A stretch of DNA of 64,000 nucleotides, taken from contig JBAZWB010000001.1 of the NCBI GenBank assembly GCA_041660605.1, positions 814,503-878,502 of the forward strand. The letters are read 5' to 3'. Below the pieces are notes generated by a model. It was not told the origin of the DNA and did no database searches. It was given only the letters and a program-made list of their open reading frames with translations. The DNA comes from Patescibacteria group bacterium (GTDB taxonomy: Bacteria; Patescibacteriota; Patescibacteriia; UBA10025; JAHIVO01). Shown in pieces: positions 7,940 through 47,300 of this stretch. The stretch's first letter is position 1. Each line of letters begins with the position of its first letter. The position numbers were made by a program, and so were the translations under genes.

Positions 7940-8449
7940 ATGAAAAAATTAATTCTCTCATTATCAATCTTCTCAGTGTTTGCTTTAGCATTCACTATTG
8001 CCTCACCAGTCTCAGCTTTCAGCTGGCACTTTAACAGAGGCACAACTGTCGTCAGCTCCAACGAAGCTTCAGTAGGAAATACCGTGAATGCCATGTCTAA
8101 CACTGGCAGCAATACTGCTGAAGACAACGACGATGGAACATCAATCGTGACAGGCCCGGCTACCTCCATGATTGACCTGCAAAACGGGATCAATGATAAC
8201 TCCACCATATTGAGACTGCGCGGCAGAATCGGCAGCTTGAAAGTTATCAGCAAAAACTCTGCTGAAGTAATGAATGTTACTACATCCACGGCAGATACCG
8301 GTAACAATACAGCAAACGAAAATGATGATGATACGTCAGTCACAACCGGTGAAGCTGCCTCAGGGATTACTATTGCCAACATGGTCAATTCGAACATGAC
8401 CAGAATTTTTAGCTCTTCTCATTTCCATCATTTCGAAGACGTTGAATAA
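7940..8449 (+). CDS. Small secreted protein with two copies of an Asn/Thr/Gly-rich repeat (NTAxxNDDxTSxxTGxA)
   Basis: Signal peptide. An SD-like AAGGAAAA lies upstream. The repeat is shared with the N-terminal half of the adjacent giant protein. Confidence 0.55.
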   Translation: MKKLILSLSIFSVFALAFTIASPVSAFSWHFNRGTTVVSSNEASVGNTVNAMSNTGSNTAEDNDDGTSIVTGPATSMIDLQNGINDNSTILRLRGRIGSLKVISKNSAEVMNVTTSTADTGNNTANENDDDTSVTTGEAASGITIANMVNSNMTRIFSSSHFHHFEDVE

Positions 8450-8458
8450 TCAGCGTTA

Positions 8459-11400
8459 ATGAAGGGAGAGGACAAGCCCGCTTGTCCTACTCCTTTATTA
8501 ACCCTTAACCATAAGAATATGAAAACCAGATCTTTCAGCCCTAAAAAAATATTTCCAAAATCTCGTCTAAGATTTTTAAACATAGTCTTGGCGTTTTTAA
8601 TTACTTTTTTACCCTTTTACCCCGCTGCTTCAGCTCTGGCTGATGAGCCAACCACTTCAGCCCCCATAAACTGCACGGATATTTTAAATAACGGAACGGC
8701 GCTGCAGGGCATTCCGGAGGGTTGCTGGGCACAGGTTGCTGTAAACGAAAACTTTTGCACCAATTTATTCAGCCCAGATAATAATGTAATCGTTGGCCTG
8801 GACTCTATGAGAGCATATTTCACTCAAAGCTGCCTTAACCTTAATGCCTCCCCGACTATTACAACCACTGACCCATTATCAAATGTTGCGACAAATGATC
8901 CAAACTCAACCAATCCACCCGCAATAACACCTGACTCGCAAAATATTACCCCACCCACCCCTGCCGACCAGAACCAAGTAGTCCTGGACACCACCACTCC
9001 AGTCAACGACGGATCGGCAAATCCCCAAACTATCAGCCAGCCAGTTGATCAAATACCCCCTGACCAGCTGGCTTTTGATACTTCTCCTGCTTTAACCCCA
9101 CCGCCATCAGACCCCTCAACAGGAACCCAGACACCACCAGCAGATCAGGCCACTGATCCAAATACTCCTCCACCTCCGCCAGATGGCATAGTAAACGCTA
9201 CCCAGCAGGCCAGCTCAAATACAACCGCCACTAGCCAAAGCAATACTGGCACAAACGATGCCAGCAATAATAACGGTGATGTAAATATAAATACCGGCAA
9301 TGCGACTGCCGGCGTGGACAATCAAAATGTAATTAATACAAACATTGTAGAAAATCAACCGCCTGCTCCGGCTAACGCAGATGTCAATTCAGGTGCTACC
9401 GTAAATCAATTGGGTGATCTCGTATCCAACATCACAACACCGGGGACCGACAATAGCCCGATGGCGCCGGATGGCCAAATACCGACAGACACTCCACCAA
9501 CTGCTGACAGCCAAAATAATACAAATCAGAATTCCGGCAACAATCCGGGTGCTGATAATTTCGCCGGCACCACACAGGATGCTACTGTGGCAAACACTGT
9601 CGGCGTCAACGCTAATACTGGAAACAATACTGCCAATAACAATGACGGGGACGCCACTGTTCAGGCTGGCGATGCTTCGGCTTTAGCAAATGTGGTAAAT
9701 ATTATTAACACGAATGTCGTCAGCGGCAATGCAGCGCAGGTAGTTATCGATGTGGCAGATCAATTCGTGGGCAATATAAATCTCCTGGATATATTAATGA
9801 GCCTGCTCGGGCAGGGAGGCGGCAATAATTCAATTTCATCTTCAACCGCCCAGCAAGCTTCCCTGCAAAATGATATTAATGCCTCTTCCAATACCGGCGG
9901 CAACACAACAAATAATAATGGCGGCGATGGAACAGTAGTTACTGGAAATGCCAATTCTGCCGTCAACTTATTTAATATCGTTAATACCACTATCGAGGGT
10001 TCAAATGTCCTGATTTCATTTGTAAATATATTCGGGAACTGGATTGGTAATTTGATTGTGCCTGGCCAGGGTATATTACCGGCTGGCCAGCAGACAGCTT
10101 CAGTGCAATCCAACTCCCAGCAAACCGCGACAGTCTCTAATACCGTGGTGACAGATGCTTCCACCGGATCCAATACTGCCAGCAATAATAACGGCGACAG
10201 CTCTGTATCTACCGGACAAGCTATTACCCTGGCGGCGATTTATAACTCCCTTAATAACAATGTCACGGGTGATAATATGCTTCTAATAATGCCGAATATA
10301 TTCGGAACTTGGAACGGAACAATTATAAATAATCCTTTGGGTGGCCCAATAAATCCGAACCAGCCTAATGGTTATGGTTTTTATTTTACTAATGGTGCCA
10401 GCGGACTTTTTGGCGTCAGCAGCCAAAACACGCAGGATGCGACCATCAATAATAATGTTTATGTCACCGCCGTGACCGGCAATAACAGCGCCTCAGGCAA
10501 TAGCGGAGATGGCACAGTCATCTCCGGCCAGGCGGCAGCCCTGGCAAACATCATCAATATAGCCAATACGCACTTAATGGGTTCTAACTGGGCATTTACG
10601 GTAATCAATCTTTTCGGCAATTGGCAGGGCAATCTGGTTTATGCTTATCCCGATTTGGGTATAACCAATAGCAATGGCGACCACACTATCCCTGACACAG
10701 TCACCGCTGGCGACCAGGTTACCTATACTCTGCATTATCAAAACACCGGATATGCGGCAGCTGATCAGATAGCCATTCAAGATACTTTTCCGCAGCAGAC
10801 AGTCTTAATTTCAACTTCCGACGGTGGCCAAGCCAATAATGGCGTAATTACCTGGGATGCGGCTTCGCTCGCCGCGCAAAGCGACGTTCAGCAGGTTTCA
10901 TTTACCGTGCAGGTTCCGAAAGATTTAGTAAAGGAAAAGCAAACCACCACTATTACTAATCATGTTTCTATTTTTACCCAGACAAATGAGGTTAATCTTG
11001 ATAATAACGTTTCCGGCAGTTCGCTGACTGTTGTGGCCGCTGCCTCGCCTCAGACAAATCCGACTGAACCCACTACAAACAATCCTGCGGCTAAACCAAA
11101 ACTAGAACTAACCAAAACAAATGATGCGAGTGCGCCACTTAATCCCGGACAATCTGTTACCTATACAATCGTTGCCTCTTCGGTTGGCGATGCCCCAATT
11201 AAAAATTTGACGCTGAACGACGAACTGAAAAATACTCAGGGCAATGTCTCATTTTCCAAAATATGGAATTTTGACAATGTCCCGGTCGGAAAAAATATCA
11301 CGGTCACTTATTCTTTAACAATTCCGCAAGATGAGCAAGTCGGCGTATTTGATAATACTGTAGTGGCTACGGCAGACGGAATAAAATCTATCAGCGCCAG

Positions 11401-12088
11401 TTCTTCGGTTACCGTGCAGTTGCCGGATGCTAATTCGCCTCAAATACAATTGCCAGGGAATGAATTGGGTCCGACTACTGTACCGCCCCAACCAGTCCAA
11501 ACACCGGTCACCCATCTTATCGTCCAAAAAACCAACAACACTTCCGGACCTGTCAGCGCCGGTACGACTGTCAATTACAAAGTCACCGTCGCTAATGACG
11601 GAGATACCACGGTGAAAAATGTCAGCGCCAAGGATATTCTGACATCTGAAAATTTTCCCAATGTGGACTTGCAAAATAAAAATTGGCAAATGGGAGACAT
11701 TCAACCGGGCGAAATCGTCACGATCGCATATGATGTCGCGTATTCTCCTGTTACTCCGGCTGGCGTGTATGTCAATAATGTTGACCTGACCGGCACTGCC
11801 TCGGATAACAGCAAAGTTGACTATAAGGCATCCAGCATTATTAAAATAAAAAATTCAGTTGTCCCTACTCCAGCCTCAACGCCAAAAATTCTTGGAGCCT
11901 CAACCGATACAGGAAATCCACCTCCGCCGAGCAGCCCAAAACTGGTTATGGTACCTGACCAATCTGCCTCCGGAATAAAATCTCTGCTGCCTTGGTGGTT
12001 AATCGCGATTTCAGTAATTATGCTGTTAACTCTGTACTACATATCATATAATCGCGAACAGAAAAAAACGATAAAAACTGCCCAATAA
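8459..12088 (+). CDS. Giant surface protein: signal peptide, Pro/Thr/Asn-rich low-complexity region, at least five copies of a ~35-aa NTxNNNDGD-TVxTGxA repeat, DUF11-type repeats, and a C-terminal TM anchor. The true start is probably the ATG at 8519.
   Basis: Repeat copies include GNNTANNNDGDATVQAGDAS, GGNTTNNNGGDGTVVTGNANS, GSNTASNNNGDSSVSTGQAI and GNNSASGNSGDGTVISGQAAA. DUF11-like segments include TYTIVASSVGDAPIKNLTLNDEL and NYKVTVANDGDTTVKNVSAKDIL. C-terminal helix WWLIAISVIMLLTLYYISY. No LPxTG motif. Confidence 0.7.
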   Translation: MKGEDKPACPTPLLTLNHKNMKTRSFSPKKIFPKSRLRFLNIVLAFLITFLPFYPAASALADEPTTSAPINCTDILNNGTALQGIPEGCWAQVAVNENFCTNLFSPDNNVIVGLDSMRAYFTQSCLNLNASPTITTTDPLSNVATNDPNSTNPPAITPDSQNITPPTPADQNQVVLDTTTPVNDGSANPQTISQPVDQIPPDQLAFDTSPALTPPPSDPSTGTQTPPADQATDPNTPPPPPDGIVNATQQASSNTTATSQSNTGTNDASNNNGDVNINTGNATAGVDNQNVINTNIVENQPPAPANADVNSGATVNQLGDLVSNITTPGTDNSPMAPDGQIPTDTPPTADSQNNTNQNSGNNPGADNFAGTTQDATVANTVGVNANTGNNTANNNDGDATVQAGDASALANVVNIINTNVVSGNAAQVVIDVADQFVGNINLLDILMSLLGQGGGNNSISSSTAQQASLQNDINASSNTGGNTTNNNGGDGTVVTGNANSAVNLFNIVNTTIEGSNVLISFVNIFGNWIGNLIVPGQGILPAGQQTASVQSNSQQTATVSNTVVTDASTGSNTASNNNGDSSVSTGQAITLAAIYNSLNNNVTGDNMLLIMPNIFGTWNGTIINNPLGGPINPNQPNGYGFYFTNGASGLFGVSSQNTQDATINNNVYVTAVTGNNSASGNSGDGTVISGQAAALANIINIANTHLMGSNWAFTVINLFGNWQGNLVYAYPDLGITNSNGDHTIPDTVTAGDQVTYTLHYQNTGYAAADQIAIQDTFPQQTVLISTSDGGQANNGVITWDAASLAAQSDVQQVSFTVQVPKDLVKEKQTTTITNHVSIFTQTNEVNLDNNVSGSSLTVVAAASPQTNPTEPTTNNPAAKPKLELTKTNDASAPLNPGQSVTYTIVASSVGDAPIKNLTLNDELKNTQGNVSFSKIWNFDNVPVGKNITVTYSLTIPQDEQVGVFDNTVVATADGIKSISASSSVTVQLPDANSPQIQLPGNELGPTTVPPQPVQTPVTHLIVQKTNNTSGPVSAGTTVNYKVTVANDGDTTVKNVSAKDILTSENFPNVDLQNKNWQMGDIQPGEIVTIAYDVAYSPVTPAGVYVNNVDLTGTASDNSKVDYKASSIIKIKNSVVPTPASTPKILGASTDTGNPPPPSSPKLVMVPDQSASGIKSLLPWWLIAISVIMLLTLYYISYNREQKKTIKTAQ

Positions 12089-12804
12089 ATATACGTTAGC
12101 ATTGACGACCGGTTAATTAAAGGGAAAATTAACATTTTCAAACCGGCAAAACGGATTGGATCCTGATATCTTTTGCAGGCTCCAGGTTACAGGCTTCATG
12201 CAAAATTAATCTAAATTGTTTAATGTAAGATTAAATATCGGGTACGCAGGGCAATATAGGCCAGGCCTCTCGGATTAAATTCCACATAACATCTTTCTTC
12301 ACTTTTATCTTTATGCTCATTTATATAAATGGATAATGAAAATATACCTGATAATCAATAAATAAAGTTATCCACAGCATATTTAATGTAATAAACCCCC
12401 ATATAAATGCACCTTATTAAAAACATTGACAACAAAAATGTAAAAAAGTAAGATAAATAAACAAATATAAATACGCTTGACAAAAAAACAAAGATATATT
12501 AAGATAAGCCATTCAAATAGCACCTTTAGGCAGGGATCGACGTACCTTATACAATACATTCGGGGGAATGTAAAAAGCCAATATTGAGTTATAAATCGGA
12601 GGAAACTCGCAGAAAACACAAGTAAAAATAAAAAAGTCAGCTAAAATCAATTTAGAAATTCCATTTTTTGAAGCTAATAATTAGCTGATTTTGAACTTCT
12701 CTGTAAGATTTTTAAAATTTGTAACTCGATATTGGCTTTTTGTTTGCAAAAATTACCAACTTTTTAAATATTTATTAAAAAACTAAATTAACCTCCAAAA
12801 ACAT

Positions 12805-15800
12805 ATGAAAATCAATCTTTTACCGAAAAAACGCGAAATCAAAAAAATTACTTACAAAACTCTGCATTTCCTGACTTTATCCGCCCTGGTCTTTAATATG
12901 ACCATGGTCGGCGTTTTTATTACTCCAAAAGCCGCCAATGCCACAGTTACGCCGCCAACTCCGGTAGCCAACCCGGTACTGACACAAAGTTGTGGACTGG
13001 ATATTGGCCTTTTGGTTGATACTTCAGGGAGTATCGATAGCGGTGAAATGACTAAAATGAAGACCGCCTTAACCAGTTTTGCCAATGCATTTGTCGGCAC
13101 ACCGGCAGTTTTCAGCCTTTCGTCATTTGCCAATGAATCATATTTAAGACGAGCATTTTCCAGAACTCCTTCACAAATTGCTGCAGATATCAGTTCAGAC
13201 ATCCCGTCAGATGGCAATGGCTGGACCAACTGGGATTCAGGGTTAGCTCGCAGTTTTGCCACCTTTGATCCCCGACCGGCAAAACCCAATTTAATTGTTA
13301 TCGCGACAGACGGCAGTCCCAACACTTACGGTTATTTCCCAGATCCGACTGTCGAGCCGACTCATAATCCGGCAAATGCTGATGAATTAGCAGCCGGCCT
13401 TAATCATGCGATTGAACGCGCTAATACAATCAAAACTGCCGGAACAAGAGTTGTCGTACTGGGAATTGGCGATGACGAATCTGATCCATCCACGCCTGCG
13501 CAAAAAGTTGATAAGATGAAACAGATCAGCGGACCAAATGTCGCCTACACTACGGCCGATATAACCACTTCCACGGATGTAATCAAAGTTGAAAACTTCG
13601 ATGGCATTGGCGCGGCACTGAGTGAATTCGTCAACCAACTCTGCGGCGGAAAAATTTTAGTGCAAAAACAATTCGACACAAACGGCGATGGCATTGCTGA
13701 AATTACCGGAAGTTCAGCAGATGCAGCGCTTGCTGGTTATACTTTTGATGTTAATGGCTCCCCTTCAAATCCGACCCCTCAAGTTACCGCCAATACCGGT
13801 TCGTTATCGTTTGATGTTTTGAATGGCACCTACAGCGTTACTGAGACTAACTTGCCGGCCAATACGGAAATAGTAAACGGCAAATGCGTGAATGGCACGC
13901 AAAATGTCGGTACCTTCTCATTGGCGACAAAAACCGTTTCAGGATTGACCATGGGAACTGATGATAATATTTCCTGCACATTTCTGAACAAAAATGTATT
14001 TGGAAAACTAAAAGTTATAAAACAAGTTTCTGGCAGCACTGAACCAGTCTCCAGCTGGAGCATGTCAGTAAAAAAAGGCGGCGTGAATGTCGCCGGCAGC
14101 CCGCAACCCGGCAGCACGACTGGCACAGAATATAATCTTGAACCAGGCACTTATACTGTCGGAGAAACCGGACCTGGCGGATACGCGGCTTCCTTCTCAG
14201 CTAGCTGTCCAAGTGGAACAGCAACAGTTACTGCAGGTCAAACAACAACCTGCACAGTGACCAACACCCGCCAAACCGGAACCCTGATTGTGAAGAAAGT
14301 TGTCTCAGGCAGCACTGAACCGTCTGCCAGCTGGTCAATGCATGTGAAACAGGGAGACCAGGAAGTTTCAGGCAGTCCGGCCGCGGGCACTTCAGCCGGC
14401 ACTTCATATACTTTACCGACTGGAACATATAATATTTCTGAAACCGGCGGTCCGAGCAATTACACGGCCAGCTTTTCTGCTGACTGCGTCAATGGTTCAG
14501 CCACCGTTACTGCCGGCCAAACGGTTACCTGCACGGTAACCAACACGCGGGATACCGGGACAATTGAACTGAAAAAAATCTGGTCAGGTCCTGCCGGTCA
14601 GACAACGCTGAACATCGGCACTACCGCCGGTGCGAGCAATGTTGATACACAGCTGACAGGCGCGGCCGGAGCGCCACCGCTGACAACCGGACAGAACACG
14701 GTTAATACCGGCACTTACTATGTTTCAGAAACCGGCGGTTTATCAAACTACAATGCCGCACTCGTCTGCACTGACAATGGCTCACCAATTACTGTTGGCG
14801 TGAATAATTCCGTTAATGTTACCAAGGGCCATGCGGTTGTCTGCACGTTTACCAACACCCGCCAAACAGGGACACTGATTGTGAAGAAAGTTGTCTCCGG
14901 CAGCACTGAACCGTCTGCCAGCTGGTCAATGCATGTCAAACAAAGCGACCAGGAAGTTTCCGGCAGTCCGGCTGCAGGCACTTCCACCGGCACTTCATAT
15001 ACTTTGCCAACTGGAACATATAATGTTTCAGAAACCGGCGGTCCGAGCAATTTCACGGCCAGCTTCTCTGCTGACTGCGTCAATGGCACGGCCACCGTCA
15101 CTGCCGGGCAGACAGTTACCTGCACGGTAACTAATACCCGGGATACCGGCCACATTACATTTAATAAAATTGTCAGCGGCGGCTCTGCCCATGATAATGA
15201 TTTTACCTTTAGTGTTTACGGGCAAGATTACCACGATGGCGATATAGCTACATTACCGACCGGATCATATGCGCTGACAGAATCAGGCCCAATTGGCTAT
15301 ACTTTATCCGCAGCCAGCGGTGTTTGCAGCTTTAGCCCAAGTGCAGATAATAACGTAACTCTGACTGTCACCAAAGATGGCGGTACCTGCAACATCACCA
15401 ATACTCGCGATACCGGCACTATCACCGTGCATAAGTTTTTACAGCTGCCCGGCGAAGATCCAATCTACGATCCGGAAAACTGGTCATGGACATTATCAAG
15501 CCAGCACGGGAGCGTATCAGGCTTGGCTGGTGGAGATACAAAAACCGTACTGACCATCGACGAATATACAGTGGCTGAGGATACTTCAAATTTTCCTGAA
15601 AATAATTTCGCCACCACCTGGACTTGCAATGCTGTCGGTGATGAGAATACTCCGTTTGCTAACGGCACCGGCACTTCATTCAATTTCACCTTAACCCATC
15701 CGGGCCAGAACGTCGTCTGCACTTTCACCAATGTCCGCGAAACAACGGAGATTACCTTTGATAAAGTTGTTGTCGGCGGCAATGAGGCAGACAGTGCCTG

Positions 15801-17835: not shown

Positions 17836-17862
17836 TCAATTTACTTCGGCGAGAGAAATACA

Positions 17863-17897
17863 AAAAGACCCTGCGGTTTTACCCGGGGTCTTTTTGG
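17863..17897. terminator. Rho-independent, near-palindromic terminator of gene 12805..17835; also the 5' boundary of repeat copy A
   Basis: AAAAAGACCC-tgcggttttacccg-GGGTCTTTTT, with an A-tract before and a T-tract after. Confidence 0.75.
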
Positions 17898-18128
17898 TTT
17901 ATCGCTTTGTCACATCGAGCCCCTCGACTATGCTCAGGGTAACCACCTCCCCCTTAGCAAAGGTTATTGATTTAGTCTTGCCTTTATGTGGCCCCTCCTT
18001 AGTAGGAGGGGTGGACACCTCCCCAGTAAACTCAAGTGGTATTACTGGCGTCTTTCTCCCCTCCTTGGAAAGGAGGGGAATTGTCTCAGCACTAGTAATA
18101 GCAGAATGATAGTGATGAGGGGTGGTTA
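17863..18128. repeat. Structured intergenic repeat, copy A: terminator, about 40 bp, then a conserved core of about 185 bp with CCCCTCC/GGAGGGG hairpins
   Basis: About 85-90% identical to 23514..23574 plus 24009..24190. Contains the hairpins CCCCTCC-ttagta-GGAGGGG and CCCCTCCTT-gga-AAGGAGGGG. A 1-nt indel between copies breaks both overlapping ORF frames. Confidence 0.7.
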
Positions 18129-18207
18129 GAATAACTACCACCCCCCCCCTTGACAGACCCCCTAGTATTAGGCTAAGGTATGTGATTAACAAGTGCATAA
18201 CTTTTGA

Positions 18208-18237
18208 TTGACAAATATAGCCTATTTTTACTATAAT
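18208..18237 (+). promoter_or_regulatory. Sigma70-type promoter for the giant gene 18298..23496
   Basis: Perfect consensus: TTGACA (18208-18213), 18-nt spacer, TATAAT (18232-18237). An SD AAGGAG lies at 18283-18288, 9 nt before the ATG at 18298. Confidence 0.55.
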
Positions 18238-18297
18238 TTCAGCACCAAAACAAAAAATTTATCAACCGAAACCCTAATAAATAAGGAGAAAACAACT

Positions 18298-23496: not shown

Positions 23497-23513
23497 TTTC
23501 AGAAATTTCAATA

Positions 23514-23549
23514 CAAAAAGACCCTGCGGTTTTACCGAGGGTCTTTTTG
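23514..23549. terminator. Rho-independent terminator of gene 18298..23496, nearly identical to the terminator at 17863
   Basis: AAAAAGACCC-tgcggttttaccga-GGGTCTTTTT. Confidence 0.75.
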
Positions 23550-23626
23550 GTTTATCCGCTCTGTCACATCGACCGAAGTGGAGATGTCTCTAAGATAATT
23601 ACATACTACCTTTTTGGTATTTAAAA

Positions 23627-23956
23627 TTATCTTAAATATTCTAATATCTTTTCAATTACCCCTTCAATATTATTATAAACATCACTATTCATAAATCTTA
23701 AAAAACGTATGTTGAATTGTTCAATGTACTCCTGCCGTACCCGGTCATAAATCCGCGCCTCTTTATTGAAATGCGTTGGTCCGTCAACTTCTATGGCTAG
23801 TTTAATTTTTGGACAGTAAAAATCAATCACATATGGACCGACGCTGTACTGCCGACGGAATTTATAGCCGGACAGTCGTTTATCTTTAAGATAACGCCAA
23901 AGCACCACCTCAGCCCTTGGTGCTAAATTCCTTAAAGTCTGACGTCTTTTTTTCAT
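23627..23956 (-). CDS. DUF559 domain protein (Vsr-like very-short-patch-repair endonuclease fold)
   Basis: 109-aa core MKKRRQTL...YVIDFYCPKIKLAIEVDGPTHF...RFLRF, typical of DUF559. The ORF track extends it to 24199 across the repeat; the extension is not conserved as protein, so the start is placed at the internal ATG (23954-23956). Confidence 0.6.
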   Translation of the reverse strand: MKKRRQTLRNLAPRAEVVLWRYLKDKRLSGYKFRRQYSVGPYVIDFYCPKIKLAIEVDGPTHFNKEARIYDRVRQEYIEQFNIRFLRFMNSDVYNNIEGVIEKILEYLR

Positions 23957-24342
23957 TTTATGTTTGTTGAAGACAACTGTCATAGGTGCTGGTGGAGCTA
24001 CCTCCCTCTTAGCAAAGGTTATTGATTTAATCTTGCCTTTATGCGGCCCCTCCTTGGCAGGAGGGGTGGACTCCTCCCCAAATAGCATTGATGGTATTGC
24101 CGGCGTCTTTCTCCCCTCCTTGTTCAAGGAGGGGAAATGCCTCAGTGCCAGCAATAGCAGAATGATAGTGGTGAGGGGTGGTGTATTTAAGTGGCACAAC
24201 GCATAAAAACCTTCCGCGGATTGCCGGGGAAGGCTAACGTTTCAATAATATCACTTTTCAGCACCAAGTCAACTCAACCTCTGTAAATTTAAAAAACTAC
24301 ATTGACAGGTATCCCCTTTTTCCGCTAAACTAATACAATTTA

Positions 24343-24372
24343 TTGACAAACGGAGAAATAATTGGCTATAAT
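24343..24372 (+). promoter_or_regulatory. Sigma70-type promoter for the giant gene 24433..27024
   Basis: Perfect consensus: TTGACA (24343-24348), 18-nt spacer, TATAAT (24367-24372). Confidence 0.5.
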
Positions 24373-24432
24373 TGGTAGAGAAATAAAAACCTTTTATATA
24401 TTATTTTACAAATTATTAATCAAACAACGCAT

Positions 24433-27024
24433 ATGAAAATTAGTGTAAAAATGCCAAAAAGTCTTCGCATTTTAGTGCCGATAATGATTTTTAGCATGGC
24501 ACTAATATTTGCTCCAACTCTGGCAAAGGCAGCCACAACATACACAGTTGACGCTGACTTTGACCAAGGCTCACTTATTAATGTAGTGCATACGCCCAGC
24601 GATCAGCTCCAACTGACTGACCAGGTCGAAGCTTTTAACTTCATTTGGGTAGCCAATTCGGGCGAAGGCACAATTGTTAAAATTAATACGGATACCGGCG
24701 CTATCGTCGGCGAGTACCGTACTTCACCGAATGGCACCTATGGCAACCCCTCCCGCACCACCGTCGACAAAGATGGCAGTGTCTGGGTAGGAAACCGCCA
24801 AGCGGTCAGCGGTAACAATGCCGCTATTACCCACGTCGGCTTACTCGAGAACGGTCAGTGCGAAGACCGCAACGGTAACGGCATAATTGATACTTCGACC
24901 GGCTTGAATGATGTAAAGGACTGGACTGATGAGAGCGGAACTCGCGGGGTCGCTACTGCCCAGGACGAATGTATTGTCCATTTCACTCCAATTGAATCCT
25001 ATGATGCCAGGCATATTTCAGTCGACTCGGCAAATAACATCTGGGTCAGCGGTATCAGTAACCGCACTTTCTTCTATATTGTTGGCGGGAAATATAATAT
25101 ACCGAATTCCGGCACTATCGTACGGACTGAAACAGGCATCGGCTATGGCGGCTATGGCGGCTTAATTTCAGGTGATGTCATTTGGTCAGCCAATCCATTA
25201 CTTCGCTGGGATACCAACTACCCTCTATCAGATGCCGCACACCACACAACTTACAGCCATGACAGCTACGGACTCTGCGAAGACAGCCAGGGAAACGTCT
25301 GGAATACTTCCCTCTCTGGCGGTGTAATTAGGAAATTCAATCCGGCTGGTGATTTGCTAGGCACCTATTCTTACGGCGCTTCCAATGCCCAAGGCTGTGT
25401 CGTTGACGGCAATGACGACGTCTGGGTAGCTCACTCGCTGTGGGGTAACAGCGTTGGCCATTTATTAAACGACGGCACGCTCGTTGGTGTTATACCGGTC
25501 GGCAATGGTCCGACTGGAGTAGCGGTAGACCACAACGGCAAAATTTGGGTCACCCATTATTCTTCCCCCTATACAGTCAAAAGGATAGACCCAACGCTTG
25601 GTGATATCGGCGGTGGCGGTGCCACGATTGGTGCAGTCGATTATACTTCAGTTGATCTTGGTGGCAGCCTCTACAACTATTCTGATATGACTGGCAGCAC
25701 TCTTTCCGGAAAAGCCGAGAGTGGCACATGGACTGTTGTTTATGATTCCCAGGCTACCGGTCCTATCGGTGATAATATTTCCTGGACTGCTGATGTGCCG
25801 AATGACGGCAATTTAACCGTCTCCATAGCGCTCAGTGACGACGGTGCCACCTATGGTATTCCGGCAACTGTAACGAACGGCCAGGATATTTCAGCGTTAA
25901 GCGCCCGATATTATAAAATCACGGTCAGCTTTGAACGAGGCGGCCGGGGTGTTAGCCCGATACTTTATGACCTCTCCCTTTCTTCACCTTACTGCGGTGA
26001 CGGAATAGCGAATCAGGAAACTGAAGAGTGCGACGGCACCGACGGCGTTGGCGGGCACCAGCAATGCACCCGTAACTGTACACTAGAAAACCTCCCTTAC
26101 TGCGGTGACGGCATTAAAAATGCCAATGAACAATGCGACGGATCTGACGGAGTAAACGCCGGCGAAGTTTGCACTGCGGAGTGTACAGTAACTGCAGTTG
26201 ATGCCAACGGACCAATCCTGACAATTACCAAAACAGTGCGGGATTCTAAGGTGGCTCCAACCGGAACCGCCACTTACACGGTTACGGTTACCAATACCGG
26301 TGCAGCCACGGCGGAAAACGTCAAACTGCATGATATACTTCCTATAAATTTCACTTTTGCTGATAATGGCATCGGCACCCACGACTGGGATCTAGGCGAT
26401 TTAACAGCCAATGAATCAACTACGGTTAGCTATGTTGTAAATATCAGCGAGAATGCCAACCAAGGTACTTATGAAAACATTGCTGTTGCCTCAGCCGACA
26501 ATTATGGAAATGTTTCCACCAAAGTGCCGGTACAGATAGAGTTTAAGACGATTGGGAAAAAAGCACCGTCATTAACCATCACCAAGACAGCAGATAAAAG
26601 CCTGGCTAATCCCGCCAGTACGGTCGGATATACTGTTACTATTGCCAATAATGGCGATGCTCCGGCGTTTAATGTTGTTTTGAAGGACACACTGCCAGCC
26701 GGTTTTGTTTTTGACGATGGCGCTACAACGAGAACCTGGACATTGGGCGATCTGGCACCGACAGAGAAAAAAATTATCACCTACTTTGCCAAAGTTGATG
26801 CCAGTGCTGCTGCGGCTATCTATGATAATGTCGCCGTTGTTACAGCGGATAATGTAGATGATATTTCTGCCGTGGCAACGGTGGAAGTCCGCACCGTACA
26901 GGTATTAGGCGCGGAAACTGATCCGGAAGCAGTATTACCGGTTACCGGCGGTGGATTCGAAATAACTTTATTAGTTGCATTTACATTAATCAGTGCCGGG
27001 GCTTTATTGATCGTTAAGCGCTAA
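24433..27024 (+). CDS. Large LPxTG-type surface protein: signal peptide, beta-propeller-like repeats, Myxococcus cysteine-rich repeats, DUF11 repeats, and a C-terminal LPVTGG sorting signal
   Basis: Propeller-like repeats DGSVWVGN, NNIWVSG, GNVWNTS, DDVWVAHS, GKIWVTH. Cysteine-rich repeats CGDGIANQETEECDGTDGVGGHQQCTRNC and CGDGIKNANEQCDGSDG...CTAEC. DUF11 modules TATYTVTVTNTGAATAENVKLHDILPINFTF and TVGYTVTIANNGDAPAFNVVLKDTLPAGFVF. C-terminus QVLGAETDPEAVLPVTGGGFEITLLVAFTLISAGALLIVKR. Confidence 0.8.
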   Translation: MKISVKMPKSLRILVPIMIFSMALIFAPTLAKAATTYTVDADFDQGSLINVVHTPSDQLQLTDQVEAFNFIWVANSGEGTIVKINTDTGAIVGEYRTSPNGTYGNPSRTTVDKDGSVWVGNRQAVSGNNAAITHVGLLENGQCEDRNGNGIIDTSTGLNDVKDWTDESGTRGVATAQDECIVHFTPIESYDARHISVDSANNIWVSGISNRTFFYIVGGKYNIPNSGTIVRTETGIGYGGYGGLISGDVIWSANPLLRWDTNYPLSDAAHHTTYSHDSYGLCEDSQGNVWNTSLSGGVIRKFNPAGDLLGTYSYGASNAQGCVVDGNDDVWVAHSLWGNSVGHLLNDGTLVGVIPVGNGPTGVAVDHNGKIWVTHYSSPYTVKRIDPTLGDIGGGGATIGAVDYTSVDLGGSLYNYSDMTGSTLSGKAESGTWTVVYDSQATGPIGDNISWTADVPNDGNLTVSIALSDDGATYGIPATVTNGQDISALSARYYKITVSFERGGRGVSPILYDLSLSSPYCGDGIANQETEECDGTDGVGGHQQCTRNCTLENLPYCGDGIKNANEQCDGSDGVNAGEVCTAECTVTAVDANGPILTITKTVRDSKVAPTGTATYTVTVTNTGAATAENVKLHDILPINFTFADNGIGTHDWDLGDLTANESTTVSYVVNISENANQGTYENIAVASADNYGNVSTKVPVQIEFKTIGKKAPSLTITKTADKSLANPASTVGYTVTIANNGDAPAFNVVLKDTLPAGFVFDDGATTRTWTLGDLAPTEKKIITYFAKVDASAAAAIYDNVAVVTADNVDDISAVATVEVRTVQVLGAETDPEAVLPVTGGGFEITLLVAFTLISAGALLIVKR

Positions 27025-27052
27025 AATCATTATTCAATTCAAATAATCAAAG

Positions 27053-27096
27053 ACCGCGGTTAGCACAGGTTATTCAAACCACTACCGCGGTTTTTG
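27053..27096 (+). terminator. Rho-independent terminator of gene 24433..27024
   Basis: AAAGACCGCGGT-(23-nt loop)-ACCGCGGTTTTTGT. The stem sequence is related to the GACCC/GCGG terminators of the two upstream giant genes. Confidence 0.6.
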
Positions 27097-27266
27097 TATT
27101 TGTTCTATAATTGAAAAATCATTTCCCGCAATAAACGATGATCTATATAATAAAAACTTGCCTTACTTCGTCAAATAAACGCGCCTCTTGACAAAACCCT
27201 GCTACTATGGTAAACTTGCCTGTTCTGAAAAAAATCTGATATAATTATTCTATAATTATAAATACG

Positions 27267-28862
27267 ATGAATAGCGAGGGGAAAATAAAATTTCATCAAA
27301 AATGCTGGCATCAAGCCAAACACTTGCATCACCATGCCAAGCATTTTTTAATTCCTCATAAGGGCAATGACCACAGGCCTCATGCTTTGCGTCCCAAGGC
27401 TCTGCGAGTATATTCCAGCTCTGTCATCCTGATTAAGCTGTTTGTGACTGCCTTTTTGTTCCTCTCTTACCCATCCTTAGGCCAATTCGCGGCTATCACA
27501 CAATCACAGATACTAAATTCTACCAATGCTTCGCGGGCAGAAGCGGGCATCGCTCCGCTGGCGCTGAATGAAACTCTTAATTATGCCGCTAAACTTAAAG
27601 CACAGGACATGATTGCTGATAATTATTTCGCCCATACCGCGCCCGATGGCACTAAACCCTGGGCTTTCATGAAGCAGGCCGGCTATAACTATTCTTCCGC
27701 CGGTGAAAACCTGGCTATGGATTTTACCGACGCAACCACGGTGCATACCGCGTTTATGAACAGCCCCTCGCACAAAAAAAACATCATGAACGGGAAGTAT
27801 ACCCAGATGGGCGTGGCCGTGCTTGATGGACAGATTGACGGCAAACAGACGACTATTTTAGTGGAATTCTTTGGCACGCCTTATGAGGCCACGGAACCCG
27901 AACCGACGCCAGCGCCAACTCCGACGCCAACTCCGACGCCAACTCCGACACCCACGCCGGCTGCAAATACAAATAAAGCTACTACCCCGGCTCCGACACC
28001 CACGCCTACACCGGTAAAAACTGCAGCTCCTGTAGTACCGAAATATTATCGCGCTGAGCTGACCGATCAGAGTGCTAAGGATTTAGGCATAAAAACTCTG
28101 GAAGAAATATCATTCTGGGTTGAATTCAAAAATACCGGTACCGCTAGCTGGACAAATACAGGCAATTATTTTGTCGCCCTGAATGTTACTAACCCCACCG
28201 GCCGCCACAGTGAATTTGAAGATAACTGGGTTGATTATTACCGCCCGGCCATTCTGTCTCAAGCCAAAGTTCTCCCTGGCGAGACGGGCCGTTTTGAATT
28301 CAAGCTGAAAGCGCCTGAAGAAGCCGGCACTTATGAAGAGTCATTCGGACTGGTGGCAGAAAACCTTACCTGGATTGACGGCGGTTCAATTGATCTGCCG
28401 ATTGTCGTCGTTGCGCCTCCGGAAAAAACCACCGAGATGCAGGTGGAGGTTATTCCCACGCCTATAACACCGGCAATTACCAATACGAATACAAATGCCA
28501 ACACTAATGTGAACACCAATGCCAACTCAAACGTAAATGCTAACTTAAACCAGGAACCGCAAAAAGTCCAGGAGCAACCATTGGCAATTGAAGAAGCGCA
28601 AAAACCCATCGTCAAGTCAATGACTATTGATAATGAACCAAAAAGCTTTCTTGGGCACCTCATAGACTATTCCGAAAGATTCTACGCTCTGCTTTTAATT
28701 TTTATAATTGTTGCCTTACTGATTAACATTCTGGTGGAGATCCGCATACAGCATCCGCACCTGATTATTCAGAGCCTGATTGTCATTATAATTGCCGCTT
28801 CAGCTATATTCCTGCATCCTCATTTCCTGGAACAAGTGCCAAAAGCTCTAAAAATTATTTAA
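27267..28862 (+). CDS. CAP/SCP-domain protein with His-rich N-terminus, signal anchor, (TP)n linker, an Ig-like beta domain, Asn-rich stalk and C-terminal TM anchor
   Basis: CAP motifs YFAHTAPDG, GENLAMD, HTAFMNSPSHKKNIM, QMGVAVL. Linker TPTPTPTPTPTPTPTP. Stalk NTNTNANTNVNTNANSNVNANLN. C-terminal hydrophobic segments. Paralogous in its CAP domain to 6685..7488. Confidence 0.7.
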   Translation: MNSEGKIKFHQKCWHQAKHLHHHAKHFLIPHKGNDHRPHALRPKALRVYSSSVILIKLFVTAFLFLSYPSLGQFAAITQSQILNSTNASRAEAGIAPLALNETLNYAAKLKAQDMIADNYFAHTAPDGTKPWAFMKQAGYNYSSAGENLAMDFTDATTVHTAFMNSPSHKKNIMNGKYTQMGVAVLDGQIDGKQTTILVEFFGTPYEATEPEPTPAPTPTPTPTPTPTPTPAANTNKATTPAPTPTPTPVKTAAPVVPKYYRAELTDQSAKDLGIKTLEEISFWVEFKNTGTASWTNTGNYFVALNVTNPTGRHSEFEDNWVDYYRPAILSQAKVLPGETGRFEFKLKAPEEAGTYEESFGLVAENLTWIDGGSIDLPIVVVAPPEKTTEMQVEVIPTPITPAITNTNTNANTNVNTNANSNVNANLNQEPQKVQEQPLAIEEAQKPIVKSMTIDNEPKSFLGHLIDYSERFYALLLIFIIVALLINILVEIRIQHPHLIIQSLIVIIIAASAIFLHPHFLEQVPKALKII

Positions 28863-29004
28863 TTCCGATAGCAAATAAGGCAAGTTATCCACAACCCATG
28901 CCGTAAAGGGGCATTTTTGGCTTGTTTAATGCAAAATAAGCCTTGACCTTTAACGCTTTTTTTAATAAGATATAGTAATTACCTAAAAATTAACAATCAA
29001 GTAA

Positions 29005-30111
29005 ATGCACACGCCTATAACCTGGAATAAGCCATCTTTGAAATGGCTATTAATCATTTTAAGCTGTTTTTTATTAATCCCCGGATTGGTTTTAGCAGCT
29101 GAAAACCACCCGCCAATAATCAATTCCACCCCTGGTACAGAAGTAACCACTGACCATCAATACCAATACACTGCGGATACGACTGACACTGATAATGAAA
29201 CTTTAACTTATGCGCTGACTACTGCTCCACAGGGCATGACCATTGCCGGCAATGTAATCTCCTGGCAGCCATTCAAAGCCGGGGTATATAACGTCGTGCT
29301 GGAGGTGACGGACCAAAACAACGGTTATGACACGCAAGCCTGGCAGATACAGGTGAAGCCGGGCGCGGTGGCTACCATTACGGTCGATCCATATGATAAA
29401 CCTTATAAGGTTAATGTCGGTGCCAGCCAGCAATTTACCGCGCAGGCTTTTGATCAGTACGGCAATGAAATAACCGGAGTTGATTTTGAATGGTCCACAA
29501 ATCCAGACTACGGCACAGTGACTAACAACGGCCTTTTAACTGGAAATAAAGCCGGTACCAGTTATGTTGCTGCTAAAGCAAATAGCATTAAAAAATCTGT
29601 CGGCTTAGCCATTGAAGGCGGCAGCAATCCAGTGTCCAATACAAACCAGGCCAGTAATGCCAATACGGCCGCAGCGACGAACCAAAATACAAATAAGTCC
29701 TCAAATGCTAACTCTCAGTCACAAAATACAAATGCTAACGAAAATACCAATGAGTCGCTGACAAATGGTAATATCAATGAAAATACAAATGAGAATGCCT
29801 CTGAACAGGAAAATAAGGCCTGCAGCAACTGGCCTCACTGGCTGCTGATCGTACTGCCGATTATTTACGCACTGGCGCTTATCGTTTATTATCAATTTGA
29901 AAAAAAGAACAAATCAGGTTCCTGGTGGATTTTTCCGGTACTGCTGACCGCTATAGGTTTGATTATCTTTTATAAATACATCTGTCCGGATACCTATGTC
30001 TGGTGGCCGTGGGTACTGGTGATAATCGGCGCGGTCCTGACTCTGCTCTACAAAGGCAAAGCCGGACCGGACAACGGCGGTAATAAATCACAAACCGAAC
30101 TCCCCTTCTAA
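29005..30111 (+). CDS. Membrane-anchored surface protein with a bacterial Ig-like (BIG2-type) domain, Asn-rich stalk and C-terminal TM helices
   Basis: Signal peptide. A BIG2-like segment ITVDPYDKPYKVNVGASQQFTAQAFDQYGNEITGVDFEWSTNPDYGTVTNNGLLTGNKAGTSYVAAKANSIKKS. Low-complexity N/T/Q-rich region. Two or three C-terminal TM helices. Confidence 0.55.
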   Translation: MHTPITWNKPSLKWLLIILSCFLLIPGLVLAAENHPPIINSTPGTEVTTDHQYQYTADTTDTDNETLTYALTTAPQGMTIAGNVISWQPFKAGVYNVVLEVTDQNNGYDTQAWQIQVKPGAVATITVDPYDKPYKVNVGASQQFTAQAFDQYGNEITGVDFEWSTNPDYGTVTNNGLLTGNKAGTSYVAAKANSIKKSVGLAIEGGSNPVSNTNQASNANTAAATNQNTNKSSNANSQSQNTNANENTNESLTNGNINENTNENASEQENKACSNWPHWLLIVLPIIYALALIVYYQFEKKNKSGSWWIFPVLLTAIGLIIFYKYICPDTYVWWPWVLVIIGAVLTLLYKGKAGPDNGGNKSQTELPF

Positions 30112-30118
30112 GACGAAT

Positions 30119-30175
30119 TTGAATAAATTTCCATAAAAAAATCGGCCGGAATCATAACTGGCCGGTTTTTTATTT
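30119..30175. terminator. Probable bidirectional terminator between convergent genes 29005..30111 (+) and uppP (-)
   Basis: A7 tract, then GGCCGG-aatcataact-GGCCGG with imperfect pairing, then a T6 tract. The stem is weak. Confidence 0.35.
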
Positions 30176-30990: not shown

Positions 30991-30993
30991 ATT

Positions 30994-31425
30994 ATGCAAA
31001 TTGAATTAGTCTTAACTCCGCTTATCACCCTTTTTGCCGTTCAATCTCTGAAACTGGCGACTGACGGCATCAAGGGTAATTTCAGCGCCAAAGATTTTTT
31101 TATCACTTACGGGGGTATGCCTTCCACCCATAGTGCCATTGTCTCCTCTTTTACCAGCATTATCGCCTATAAAGAGGGGCTTTTTTCTCCTGCTTTCAGC
31201 ATCGCCATGGTCTTTTCCCTGATTGTAATCGTAGATGCCATGTCATTCCGCCGGCATATAGACCAGCAAGGCCGGGCGATCAAGAAGCTGATCGGCGGTC
31301 TGCCTCAGGATGAGCAAAAGAAATTTCCCTATTTTTCCACCAGAGTCGAACATACCTTGCCGCAGGTAGCCGTCGGAATACTGTTGGGCTTTACGATTGC
31401 TTCCATTATTGCATTAATCACATAA
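30994..31425 (+). CDS. DUF212 / divergent PAP2-family membrane protein (acid phosphatase/vanadium haloperoxidase-related)
   Basis: GGMPSTHSAIVSSFTSI...DAMSFRRH matches the DUF212 divergent-PAP2 pattern. Four TM helices. Confidence 0.55.
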   Translation: MQIELVLTPLITLFAVQSLKLATDGIKGNFSAKDFFITYGGMPSTHSAIVSSFTSIIAYKEGLFSPAFSIAMVFSLIVIVDAMSFRRHIDQQGRAIKKLIGGLPQDEQKKFPYFSTRVEHTLPQVAVGILLGFTIASIIALIT

Positions 31426-47226: not shown

Positions 47227-47300
47227 CGGGGTATGGCGCAGTTGGCTAGCGCGCATCGTTCGGGACGATGAGGCCGCCGGTTCAAGTCCGGCTACCCCGA
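47227..47300 (+). tRNA. tRNA-Pro (anticodon CGG)
   Basis: Cloverleaf built by hand: acceptor CGGGGTA/TACCCCG; D-arm GCGC-AGTTGGCTA-GCGC; anticodon arm CATCG-TTCGGGA-CGATG (U33, C34 G35 G36, G37); T-arm GCCGG-TTCAAGT-CCGGC; discriminator A. CCA is not encoded. Confidence 0.85.

Follow-up and report, generated by a model that had tools for sequence, protein, structure and literature searches.

Organization of the locus

The question raised by this locus is how giant proteins with a sortase-type motif at their C termini are held on a cell when the surrounding DNA encodes no sortase. The locus lies in a 64-kb stretch (the window) of a 960,449-bp contig from a Patescibacteria (CPR) bacterium. Sortase-type surface-protein clusters are a well-known kind of system, and this lineage is poorly studied. 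Taken together, at a probability of roughly 0.7, the island is a surface-adhesin locus whose products are sortase-anchored fibrillar adhesins, with the sortase encoded elsewhere in the genome. This assignment was deduced from sequence evidence, namely, the domains present, the conservation of the motif, synteny, and what surrounds the sortase genes of relatives.

All five plus-strand ORFs listed in the preliminary description (beginning at 7940, 8459, 12805, 18298, and 24433) were present. They had been described as consecutive genes of a 22-kb island, whereas the island measured approximately 19.1 kb, roughly 2% of the contig, and small minus-strand ORFs intervene at 17899-18198 and 23627-24199. 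The bracketing of the island by two CAP paralogs and a Big_2 protein was borne out by Pfam matches in all three genes. The features are as follows.

6685-7488, plus strand, left bracket, secreted CAP/YkwD-like protein, 267 aa (PF00188, 64.7 bits)
7940-8449, plus strand, small secreted protein, 169 aa
8459-12088, plus strand, giant 1, 1209 aa
12805-17835, plus strand, giant 2, 1676 aa
17857-18198, spacer element, terminator-like hairpin (17857-17903) followed by repeat blocks
18298-23496, plus strand, giant 3, 1732 aa (1762 aa only with the TTG at 18208)
23627-24199, minus strand, ORF with a Vsr-like endonuclease domain (DUF559), separating giants 3 and 4 (PF04480, precomputed annotation)
24433-27024, plus strand, giant 4, 863 aa
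27025-27266, 243-bp gap from the last LPxTG gene to the CAP gene, hairpin with T-run and promoter-like hexamers
27267-28862, plus strand, right bracket, membrane CAP/YkwD-like protein, 531 aa (PF00188, 65.9 bits)
29005-30111, plus strand, Big_2/Ig-domain membrane protein, 368 aa (PF02368, 31.3 bits)
30175-30999, minus strand, undecaprenyl-diphosphatase (BacA/UppP) (PF02673, precomputed annotation)

Domain architecture of the giant proteins

The DUF11 modules previously noted in all four giants were confirmed, as PF01345, a family now named CLIPPER, scored above its gathering score in each (65.4, 131.8, 145.1, and 102.9 bits for giants 1 to 4; cutoff, 24.6), with 3, 3, 3, and 2 matching stretches, respectively. 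Fibrillar adhesins use CLIPPER as a CnaA-like isopeptide domain in their stalks, and its structure has been solved (PMC12617251). A profile built from alignment A1 matched that structure, 9IFR (E 0.002), in register at the triad Asp and Asn, and K120, D154, and N201 were invariant in the alignment. The full K...D.LP...Y.N.A pattern was found in two domains of each LPxTG giant. For the last 265 aa of giant 4, AF2 predicted two beta-sandwiches (pLDDT above 90), placed LPVTG in a low-confidence, disordered linker, and gave a helix at residues 244-264 of the modelled stretch. Two or three CLIPPER domains keeping the Lys/Asp/Asn isopeptide triad would form a membrane-proximal stalk common to giants 2, 3, and 4.

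These three proteins are most readily interpreted as modular fibrillar adhesins, each with a Sec signal peptide and a different putative distal head. In giant 2, the signal peptide is followed by a VWA head containing the MIDAS-like motif DTSGS and by SpaA/SpaA_2 (CnaB-like) repeats (Pfam scores of 33.7 bits for VWA, 103.8 for SpaA, and 65.7 for SpaA_2). Three CLIPPER domains (about nt 16624-17679) and an LPTTG sorting signal (nt 17722-17832) complete this protein, and orthologous tails were found at five related loci (L003, L004, L010, L013, and L014). The head of giant 3, a protein with 90 Cys residues, combines Cys-rich acidic repeats (DUF4215, 71.9 bits; TIGR02232, 240.8 bits), thrombospondin type-3 repeats (TSP_3, 46.9 bits), and a lamin-tail domain (LTD, 47.0 bits). 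Its three CLIPPER domains (nt 21952-23292) have further Cys-rich repeats between them and are followed by an LPVTG sorting signal (nt 23392-23493); the isopeptide domain model TIGR04226 was also matched (48.2 bits; cutoff, 30). Giant 4 has a beta-propeller-like head (SGL/NHL/Vgb_lyase matches; SGL, 35.7 bits), one Cys-rich repeat, two CLIPPER domains (nt 26212-26862), and an LPVTG sorting signal (nt 26935-27021). This domain content suggests that the proteins may serve in host attachment and host-cell binding or in episymbiosis.

Giant 1 and the small 7940 protein constitute one family, distinct from the three LPxTG giants, with a beta-rich repeat head common to both. The small protein consists of a signal peptide and two copies of an Asn/Thr/Gly-rich repeat core that also occurs in the N-terminal half of giant 1 (BLASTP E 7e-8, 38% identity); no Pfam or NCBIfam family matched it. 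Giant 1 begins with a signal peptide, a Pro/Thr-rich region, and four or five unannotated beta-rich repeats of ~90 aa, continues with three CLIPPER/DUF11 domains (about nt 10670-11848), and ends in a membrane helix and basic tail with no LPxTG. Its CLIPPER stalk would remain membrane anchored through this plain helix. The possibility that giant 1 is a decayed copy of the other giants was rejected, as its large family is a separate one that ends in a plain membrane helix.

C-terminal sorting signals

The translations of giants 2, 3, and 4 end, as had been described, in LP[TV]TG, a hydrophobic helix, and a basic tail. The C terminus of giant 2 reads ...KIKVLGEA-LPTTG-GSLMFYLYLLAIGLIIAFVGWVLKLTLSTSRE, and the two LPVTG termini read, in the order listed, ...VAVLGAETDEDAA-LPVTG-MNIIQYLYIIGAGLVVIFSGWALRLTISR and ...VQVLGAETDPEAV-LPVTG-GGFEITLLVAFTLISAGALLIVKR. 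The '[KQ]VLG(A)E(T)' string that had been counted as part of the anchor cassette was found instead to be the last strand and linker of a CLIPPER domain. The string 'VLGEE(T)P' also links consecutive CLIPPER domains, and VLG(A)E lies 0-17 residues from the pentapeptide.

A lack of conservation in orthologues would have spoken against the motif, and the opposite was observed. L[PAV]xTG was present in all 34 non-redundant homologous tails, 23-42 residues from the C terminus, while the linker from the domain end to the motif varied over 0-17 residues. The curated anchor models did not recover the signal, as TIGR01167, with a cutoff of 15.9 bits, reached 12.8, 11.0, and 11.7 bits and PF00746 (Gram_pos_anchor) had no match at E <= 0.01. 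Sequence comparison nonetheless supports the assignment of the three tails as sortase-type sorting signals, each with the LP[TV]TG pentapeptide on a flexible linker ahead of a membrane helix and a basic stop-transfer tail. CPR bacteria commonly encode surface proteins that carry sortase motifs (PMC5220378).

Following export, the C-terminal helix would keep each protein in the membrane. A cysteine transpeptidase of PF04203, from the Patescibacteria-specific sortase family, would then cut between Thr and Gly and link the cut protein to a cell-wall precursor, after which the stalk would push the head outward. We infer the cleavage, the wall attachment, and the location of the sortase elsewhere in the genome. 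A literature search yielded no biochemical evidence that any Patescibacteria cleave such proteins or link them to the wall.

Search for the processing enzyme

The reported absence of sortase and exosortase genes from the window was upheld. Four routes to a sortase were empty: a six-frame scan of the window for TLxTC, Pfam on essentially every window ORF together with the precomputed Pfam annotation, tblastn of five Patescibacteria sortases against the window (best E 0.36), and separate inspection of the gap at 27025-27266. No exosortase-family gene was found by Pfam among the window ORFs or next to the homologues, where the neighbour is PF04203. This bears on the proposal that the tails are processed by an exosortase, archaeosortase, rhombosortase, or unknown protease, which is judged extremely improbable. 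Exosortase XrtM matched one tail below threshold (E 0.059, 13.8 bits; cutoff, 125), but the alignment pairs a hydrophobic helix with a membrane protein. Giant 3 has repeats in common with a MYXO-CTERM protein model (MtsC), but that match spans the thrombospondin repeats rather than the C terminus. PEP-CTERM, GlyGly-CTERM, and Cys-containing MYXO-CTERM motifs were absent from the tails.

In relatives, a PF04203 sortase gene separates the last LPxTG giant from the CAP gene. By tblastn, a sortase adjoined the CAP orthologue in 7 of 18 genome loci (L007, L011, L012, L015, L016, L017, and L021), and at L025, a gene encoding two CLIPPER domains and LAPTG is followed 40 bp on by a sortase. Locus L107, colinear with the window over 11 genes (39-74% identity), has the order giant-giant-sortase-response regulator-CAP, and the P0031 locus has the order CAP-giant-DUF559-giant-sortase-response regulator. 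Among 41 sortase-centred metagenome loci, each with at least 6 kb of flank, a CLIPPER sequence lay within 3 kb of the sortase in 31, while an LPxTG-type ORF was found within 1.5 kb in 20 and the CAP orthologue at no more than that distance in 22. Such giants, and the CAP gene at the right flank of the island, have a specific Patescibacteria sortase family as their conserved neighbour. The processing enzyme, which the preliminary description had left open, is less so on this evidence, although the window itself lacks the gene; the reading of the giants as sortase substrates stood, with its motif kept in orthologues and its homologues adjoining PF04203, while the limits drawn for the cassette did not.

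The slot that matches the gap at 27025-27266 holds the sortase in L107, L007, L011, L012, L021, and the P0031 locus, together with the response regulator in L107 and P0031. When inspected separately, the gap contained no relic of either gene. No sortase was found within 10 kb of the CAP orthologue at seven further loci (L003, L004, L008, L009, L010, L013, and L014), which, like the lack of one in the window, counts against sortase anchoring. The missing slot gene and its missing relic speak for plain membrane anchoring, in which the sortase has been lost, the C-terminal helix tethers the three proteins as in giant 1, and LPxTG is a leftover. The neighbouring giant 1 family, which uses the helix alone, is in keeping with this, as is the patchy occurrence of sortase outside Microgenomates, which counts against sortase anchoring here; PMC6744442 reports that patchiness and also places the sortase family in more than half of CPR genomes. 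Nevertheless, LP[VTI]TG was intact in all 20 tails from the window and the seven loci just named, while the linker and helix varied. An unused motif should have decayed at this divergence (adjoining domains, 40-50% identity), which argues against a leftover. Furthermore, on a rough CAP tree, loci with and without a sortase at the slot were intermingled among close relatives, a pattern that fits relocation better than one ancient loss. Plain anchoring was consequently considered unlikely, and the sortase of the favored reading, sortase anchoring, is presumed to be gone from its usual slot and encoded elsewhere on the 960-kb chromosome. In a search with the L007 sortase, the 960,449-bp contig was not among the matches listed. 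This negative carries little weight because the known L011 sortase (258,610-bp contig) was also missing and, in another search, the window's own proteins were unlisted.

Comparison with known systems

Gram-positive pilus tip adhesins are built from VWA, CnaB-like repeats, and LPxTG, and RrgA, GBS104, and SpaC are such adhesins with a vWFA domain. Giant 2 resembles them in joining VWA (DxSxS motif), CnaB-like repeats, and LPxTG, and could on that basis be the tip adhesin of a sortase-assembled pilus in which a pilus-type sortase would link the giants, as pilins, head to tail. The tails matched the SpaH/EbpB pilin model NF033902 weakly (E 0.005-0.009), and class C was the best NCBIfam class model for the relatives' sortases (94.7 bits). 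These scores are far from the respective cutoffs, however, with NF033902 at about 15 bits against 95 and class C requiring 160. The YPK pilin motif was absent from all five proteins, the locus has no shaft pilin gene or pilus-class sortase, and a single sortase rather than a housekeeping and pilus pair was found per related locus (metagenome loci, L107, and P0031). Proteins of 860-1730 aa with heterogeneous heads are also unlike shaft pilins. A pilus was accordingly judged quite improbable.

Sortase anchoring places the giants closest to the MSCRAMM-type Gram-positive adhesins (Cna/SdrD class, housekeeping sortase), which likewise have a signal peptide, a distal binding head, a repeated Ig-like stalk with intramolecular isopeptide triads, and LPxTG with hydrophobic helix and basic tail, and whose genes may be far from the sortase gene. 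The giants differ in coming from a ~1-Mb Patescibacteria genome and in having a stalk of CLIPPER (CnaA-like DUF11) instead of CnaB or SdrD_B alone. In addition, their tails score slightly under the TIGR01167 cutoff, and the associated sortases pass the generic model only (TIGR01076, 88.6 bits; cutoff, 39.35), failing the matched class C, D, E, F, and GN models. These sortases retain His, Cys, and Arg (alignment A3) and are named 'sortase', 'sortase A', or 'class E sortase' in their sources. They are Patescibacteria PF04203 members like CPR family fam000526 (Meheust et al. 2019, PMC6744442), for which the available text reports the distribution and describes no linkage to CLIPPER substrates, a response regulator, or a CAP membrane protein. 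The CLIPPER tandem stalk, with its conserved Lys/Asp/Asn triad positions, is shared with B9T28_05395 of Acinetobacter silvestris (9IFR, PMC12617251), which has an OmpA-like anchor in a Gram-negative envelope, in contrast to the sortase signal or (giant 1) membrane helix here.

Flanking genes and spacers

The right flank is colinear with L003, L004, and L107, and its conserved content (BacA, DUF212, Fpg, CBS, ABC transporter, and VKOR) places the island at a fixed chromosomal position. The Big_2 protein is syntenic, with orthologues in L003, L004, L008-L010, L013, L014, and L107. The right CAP protein has a conserved N-terminal KHFL[VI]PHK...HALRP motif (alignment A2), followed by a TM segment, the CAP domain, a Pro/Thr linker, an Ig-like domain, and C-terminal TM helices. 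Its paralogue on the left scored 98.6 bits with the YkwD model TIGR02909, under the cutoff, and the P0031 locus likewise has a CAP gene upstream of its giants.

The repeat blocks of the spacer at 17857-18198 share 88-96% identity with the spacer that follows giant 3 (direct-repeat families D6, D8, and D9). The 99-aa minus-strand ORF at 17899-18198, which had no Pfam match, corresponds to the post-giant-3 element minus its DUF559 part. Homologues of the DUF559 ORF occupy similar positions in L014 (tblastn 50% identity, E 9e-49) and in the P0031 locus, where the giants are separated by a DUF559 gene of 113 aa.

Gene content of the island

The five plus-strand ORFs of the preliminary description were all recovered by ORF reading and translation. 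The features of the island and its flanks are as follows.

Features of the surface-protein island (coordinates in the window)
6685-7488, flanking CAP-domain gene (Pfam)
7940-8449, plus strand, small secreted protein, 169 aa
8459-12088, plus strand, giant 1, 1209 aa; PF01345
12805-17835, plus strand, giant 2, 1676 aa; PF01345, VWA, SpaA/SpaA_2
17899-18198, minus strand, ORF in the spacer between giants 2 and 3
18298-23496, plus strand, giant 3, 1732 aa; PF01345, DUF4215 Cys-rich repeats, thrombospondin type-3, lamin-tail
23627-24199, minus strand, DUF559 endonuclease-like ORF in the spacer between giants 3 and 4
24433-27024, plus strand, giant 4, 863 aa; PF01345, beta-propeller-like region
27267-28862, flanking CAP-domain gene (Pfam)
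29005-30111, Big_2 membrane protein, 3' of the CAP gene (Pfam)

The presence of DUF11 (PF01345) in all four giants was upheld by Pfam, with scores of 65.4, 131.8, 145.1, and 102.9 bits for giants 1 to 4 against a cutoff of 24.6, and the domains of the two CAP paralogues and the Big_2 membrane protein said to bracket the island were likewise found. The five genes had been called consecutive; they do share one strand, but two of the spacers are occupied by small minus-strand ORFs. The length of 1762 aa first given for giant 3 requires an upstream TTG at 18208 and was revised to 1732 aa, since an independent gene call begins at 18298. The 863-aa protein is encoded on contig k141_729649 of ENA assembly ERZ27249449 (960,449 bp), so that the island takes up about 2% of a chromosome of roughly 1 Mb. 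No Rfam match was obtained over positions 6000 to 31000, and the only tRNAs of the window, tRNA-Pro(CGG) at 47227-47300 and tRNA-Gln(CTG) at 60899-60971, lie outside the island.

The spacers that follow giants 2 and 3 (17857-18198 and 23510-24199) share three blocks of 88 to 96% identity, including a terminator-like hairpin, and the coding 3' ends beside them are just ~45% identical as protein. The spacer after giant 3 contains an additional ~400 bp encoding the DUF559 (Vsr-like) domain. ORFs between giants were also found in relatives, namely DUF559 in L014 and the P0031 locus and GIY-YIG in L004. Within the SpaA-like region of giant 2, a 300-nt direct repeat (14250-14549 versus 14841-15140) is 89% identical, which suggests that stalk modules were recently duplicated within the gene or underwent gene conversion.

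Predicted sorting signals of giants 2 to 4

The C termini were read from the translations and compared in an alignment of the final 265 residues of giants 2 to 4 with ten homologues (alignment A1). As read from the translations, the N termini start with basic residues and continue into a hydrophobic core and a cleavage region rich in Ala, consistent with a Sec-type signal peptide (predicted cleavage, for example, at ...TLAKA|ATTY and ...PKPAFA|ARNL). The LP[TV]TG motif, hydrophobic helix, and basic tail reported for three giants were read directly: the pentapeptides LPTTG, LPVTG, and LPVTG of giants 2, 3, and 4 stand 32, 29, and 24 residues before the C terminus, respectively, and each is followed by approximately 20 hydrophobic residues and a basic end (...KLTLSTSRE, ...RLTISR, and ...IVKR). 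In the AF2 model of the last 265 aa of giant 4, a helix was predicted at residues 244 to 264, with LPVTG in a disordered stretch.

The TIGR01167 search proposed as a check on the three tails narrowly failed (12.8, 11.0, and 11.7 bits against a cutoff of 15.9) and PF00746 gave no match to them at an E value of ≤0.01; both models derive mainly from Firmicutes and Actinobacteria sequences. A lack of conservation of the motif in orthologues had been named beforehand as one of the refuting outcomes. The L, T, and G of the pentapeptide were invariant in A1, and in every close homologue L[PA]xTG was followed by a helix and a basic C-terminal end. When tails from the homologue search were pooled with those from syntenic loci, the motif was kept as L[PAV]xTG in 34 of 34 nonredundant tails, 23 to 42 residues from the C terminus and separated from the last CLIPPER (DUF11) domain by a linker of 0 to 17 residues. 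LPVTG occurred 16 times and LPTTG 6 times, the others being LPATG, LAATG, LPITG, LPRTG, LAPTG, LPETG, LADTG, LVETG, and LPKTG. The homologue search missed the window's own 863-aa protein and two paralogues as well as the known sortase of L011, so that nonlisting there does not equal absence. Both this conservation and the genes that surround the homologues in relatives support the assignment of giants 2 to 4 as putative sortase substrates.

The sequence VLGAE, previously included in the C-terminal cassette, was removed from the sorting signal because "VLGEE(T)P" also joins consecutive CLIPPER domains in A1, placing it at a domain boundary. Processing of the exosortase, archaeosortase, or rhombosortase type is likewise disfavoured: no PEP-CTERM, PGF-CTERM, GlyGly-CTERM, or MYXO-CTERM motif was present in the three tails, no such enzyme was found in the window, and a subthreshold match to XrtM was attributed to the hydrophobic helix.

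CLIPPER stalk domains

DUF11 was renamed CLIPPER in 2025, when the crystal structure (PDB 9IFR) revealed a CnaA-like domain in which an Asp catalyses a Lys-Asn isopeptide bond; such domains typically serve in the stalk of fibrillar adhesins (PMC12617251). In A1, K120, D154, and N201 were invariant, and the reference triad in 9IFR is K715, D748, and N806. The A1 profile matched 9IFR at an E value of 0.002 with the Asp and Asn aligned; the profile was required for this, as a PDB sequence search with a single C-terminal fragment returned nothing relevant. A strict K...D.LP...Y.N.A pattern was found in the two domains nearest the membrane in each LPxTG giant and was not matched in the domains of the 8459 protein (giant 1) or the third domains of giants 2 and 3. 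The AF2 model of the last 265 aa of giant 4 contained two confident beta-sandwich domains. Foldseek of this two-domain model against the PDB gave generic tandem Ig-like matches (RbmA, integrin, and transglutaminase), and 9IFR was not in the top 50.

The 8459 and 7940 proteins

Giant 1 is without LPxTG and ends in a C-terminal helix and basic tail. Its N-terminal half carries an Asn/Thr/Gly-rich repeat of ~90 aa that had no Pfam or NCBIfam match, and the core of this repeat occurs twice in the small 7940 protein. The repeat module was found in 1731 representative clusters at an E value of ≤0.001, with members of ~900 aa. Since 97 of the best 150 had a TM-like helix at the end and just 3 had LPxTG, the 8459 protein is assigned to a separate, predicted membrane-anchored family rather than to decayed sortase substrates. 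The tail "ILGASTDTGN..." was considered as a decayed LPxTG and ruled out, as the family ends in a plain helix.

Absence of sortase from the window

The reported absence of sortase and exosortase genes from the 64 kb held in four analyses. A six-frame scan for the TLxTC active site found nothing in a real ORF, Pfam analysis of essentially all window ORFs gave no PF04203 and no exosortase family, tblastn with five Patescibacteria sortases gave a best E value of 0.36, and the gap upstream of the CAP gene was inspected directly. The position between giant 4 and the CAP gene, where relatives keep the sortase (here termed the slot), spans 243 bp in the window and contains a hairpin and promoter-like hexamers. 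A search for a sortase relic there and at the corresponding positions of L003 and L004 gave only noise.

Sortase neighbourhood in relatives

The CAP protein at 27267-28862 was the key that led to the sortases of relatives. A scan of the genome collection with this protein alone gave no match, and the same scan succeeded with a three-sequence CAP alignment. The relatives obtained were titled Patescibacteria, and the closest named one was a Candidatus Kerfeldbacteria chromosome at 59% identity. By tblastn, a sortase was found directly adjoining the CAP orthologue in 7 of 18 genome loci (L007, L011, L012, L015, L016, L017, and L021), with the order LPxTG giant, sortase, CAP in L011, L012, and L021. 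A sortase also adjoins a substrate homologue in these last three loci and in L025, L107, and the P0031 locus; in L025, it lies 40 bp downstream of P0010, a tail-module homologue with the architecture CLIPPERx2-LAPTG.

The closest matches to the window, L107 and the P0031 locus, were reached via the sortase hits. In L107 the order is giant, giant, sortase (237 aa), response regulator, CAP, Ig protein, and BacA, continuing with DUF212, Fpg, CBS, ABC transporter, VKOR, and M10 peptidase; 11 genes are colinear with the window at 39 to 74% identity. The P0031 locus (CAP, giant, DUF559 on the minus strand, giant, sortase, and response regulator) mirrors the window, including the upstream CAP gene and the DUF559 ORF. 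The response regulator is a single-domain protein that stands between sortase and CAP in L107 and in the P0031 locus. When metagenome contigs were scanned with a sortase alignment, 80 loci were obtained, 41 of which had at least 6 kb of flank. Within these 41, CLIPPER-homologous sequence lay ≤3 kb from the sortase in 31, an LPxTG-type ORF ≤1.5 kb away in 20, and a CAP orthologue ≤1.5 kb away in 22. The N-terminal motif KHFL[VI]PHK..HALRP of the CAP protein is conserved. CAP and sortase genes are neighbours in 7 of the 18 loci centred on CAP and in 22 of the 41 centred on sortase, which suggests that the membrane CAP/YkwD-like protein is functionally linked to sortase.

The relatives' sortases keep the His, Cys, and Arg in their alignment (A3) and, with 88.6 bits, exceeded the 39.35-bit cutoff of TIGR01076, the generic sortase model. 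They fell below the cutoff of every class model matched, the best being the pilus class, class C (94.7 against 160 bits). Compared with pilus tip adhesins, the VWA protein (giant 2) is alike, but the island is without a pilin motif or pilus-class sortase: YPK was absent from all five proteins, and no dedicated class C sortase was found in the window. Compared with Gram-positive sortase-anchored fibrillar adhesins, the island is a predicted functional counterpart. The preliminary description had left the processing enzyme open; none is present in the window, as stated there, but a Patescibacteria PF04203 family neighbours the homologues and the CAP gene in relatives.

Three side observations were made on the relatives' loci. 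The CAP-adjacent sortase of L016 (Portnoybacteria, 11091-12176) is fused to an N-terminal domain matching protein-S-isoprenylcysteine O-methyltransferase (NF040696, 60 bits, residues 71 to 153). P0069, on a 3.6-kb ENA contig, is a 365-aa predicted protein with both PF04203 and PF01345, representing a fusion or a merged gene call. GTDB representatives titled "uncultured Gammaproteobacteria" or "Pseudomonadales" (L007, L019, L020, L021, and L023) carry Patescibacteria-type CAP and sortase loci, and these records are probably mislabelled or chimeric bins.

Loci with a vacant slot

The slot is likewise without sortase in L003, L004, L008, L009, L010, L013, and L014. Across these seven loci and the window, LP[VTI]TG was intact in 20 of 20 tails, which argues that a sortase presumably still acts in those genomes. 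When the N-terminal regions of the CAP proteins were placed in a rough neighbour-joining tree, sortase-bearing and sortase-less loci were interspersed; this distribution fits repeated relocation or loss rather than a single old event.

Theoretically, the same data could be read differently. The sortase, together with the response regulator, would have been cleanly removed from the canonical slot in this and at least seven related genomes with LPxTG perfectly conserved, and if these genomes are without any PF04203 protein, the tails would be recognised by something else, perhaps an unrecognised transpeptidase or protease or an enzyme of the host cell that carries the epibiont. We consider this reading very improbable. 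It is more likely that one or more CLIPPER-LPxTG adhesins, sortase, response regulator, and CAP constitute a conserved Patescibacteria surface-display module in which the CAP protein would be a functional partner of the sortase. A limited search of the open-access literature gave no account of this substrate, sortase, response regulator, CAP order or of CLIPPER-LPxTG islands in Patescibacteria.

Candidate attachment proteins

A life attached to other microbes is generally assumed for Patescibacteria. To our knowledge, the molecules of attachment are mostly unknown except for type IV pili. The locus provides a conserved and experimentally tractable set of candidates with three head types (VWA, Cys-rich with thrombospondin repeats, and beta-propeller), a common, predicted isopeptide-stabilised stalk, and a sortase tail, and the partner enzyme family is recognisable in relatives. 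A host-attachment role of the island is plausible at the level of sequence.

None of the mechanisms is new, since CPR sortase genes, surface proteins with sortase motifs, and CLIPPER stalks were already known (PMC6744442, PMC5220378, and PMC12617251, respectively). Meheust et al. reported that over half of CPR genomes have a sortase family whose distribution is patchy outside Microgenomates (PMC6744442), and most CPR were reported to have multiple surface proteins with sortase motifs (Castelle et al., PMC5220378). What is added here is that the island occupies a fixed place on the chromosome, that substrate, sortase, (response regulator), and CAP follow one another in a conserved order, and that sortase is patchily absent from the slot.

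VKOR and MdbA-type disulfide formation are tied to sortase-dependent surface assembly in CPR in the same study (Meheust et al., PMC6744442). In the window, a VKOR gene (36341-36796, minus strand) that has a syntenic counterpart in L107 is found 9 kb downstream from the island, and giant 3 contains 90 cysteines, in Cys-rich repeats.
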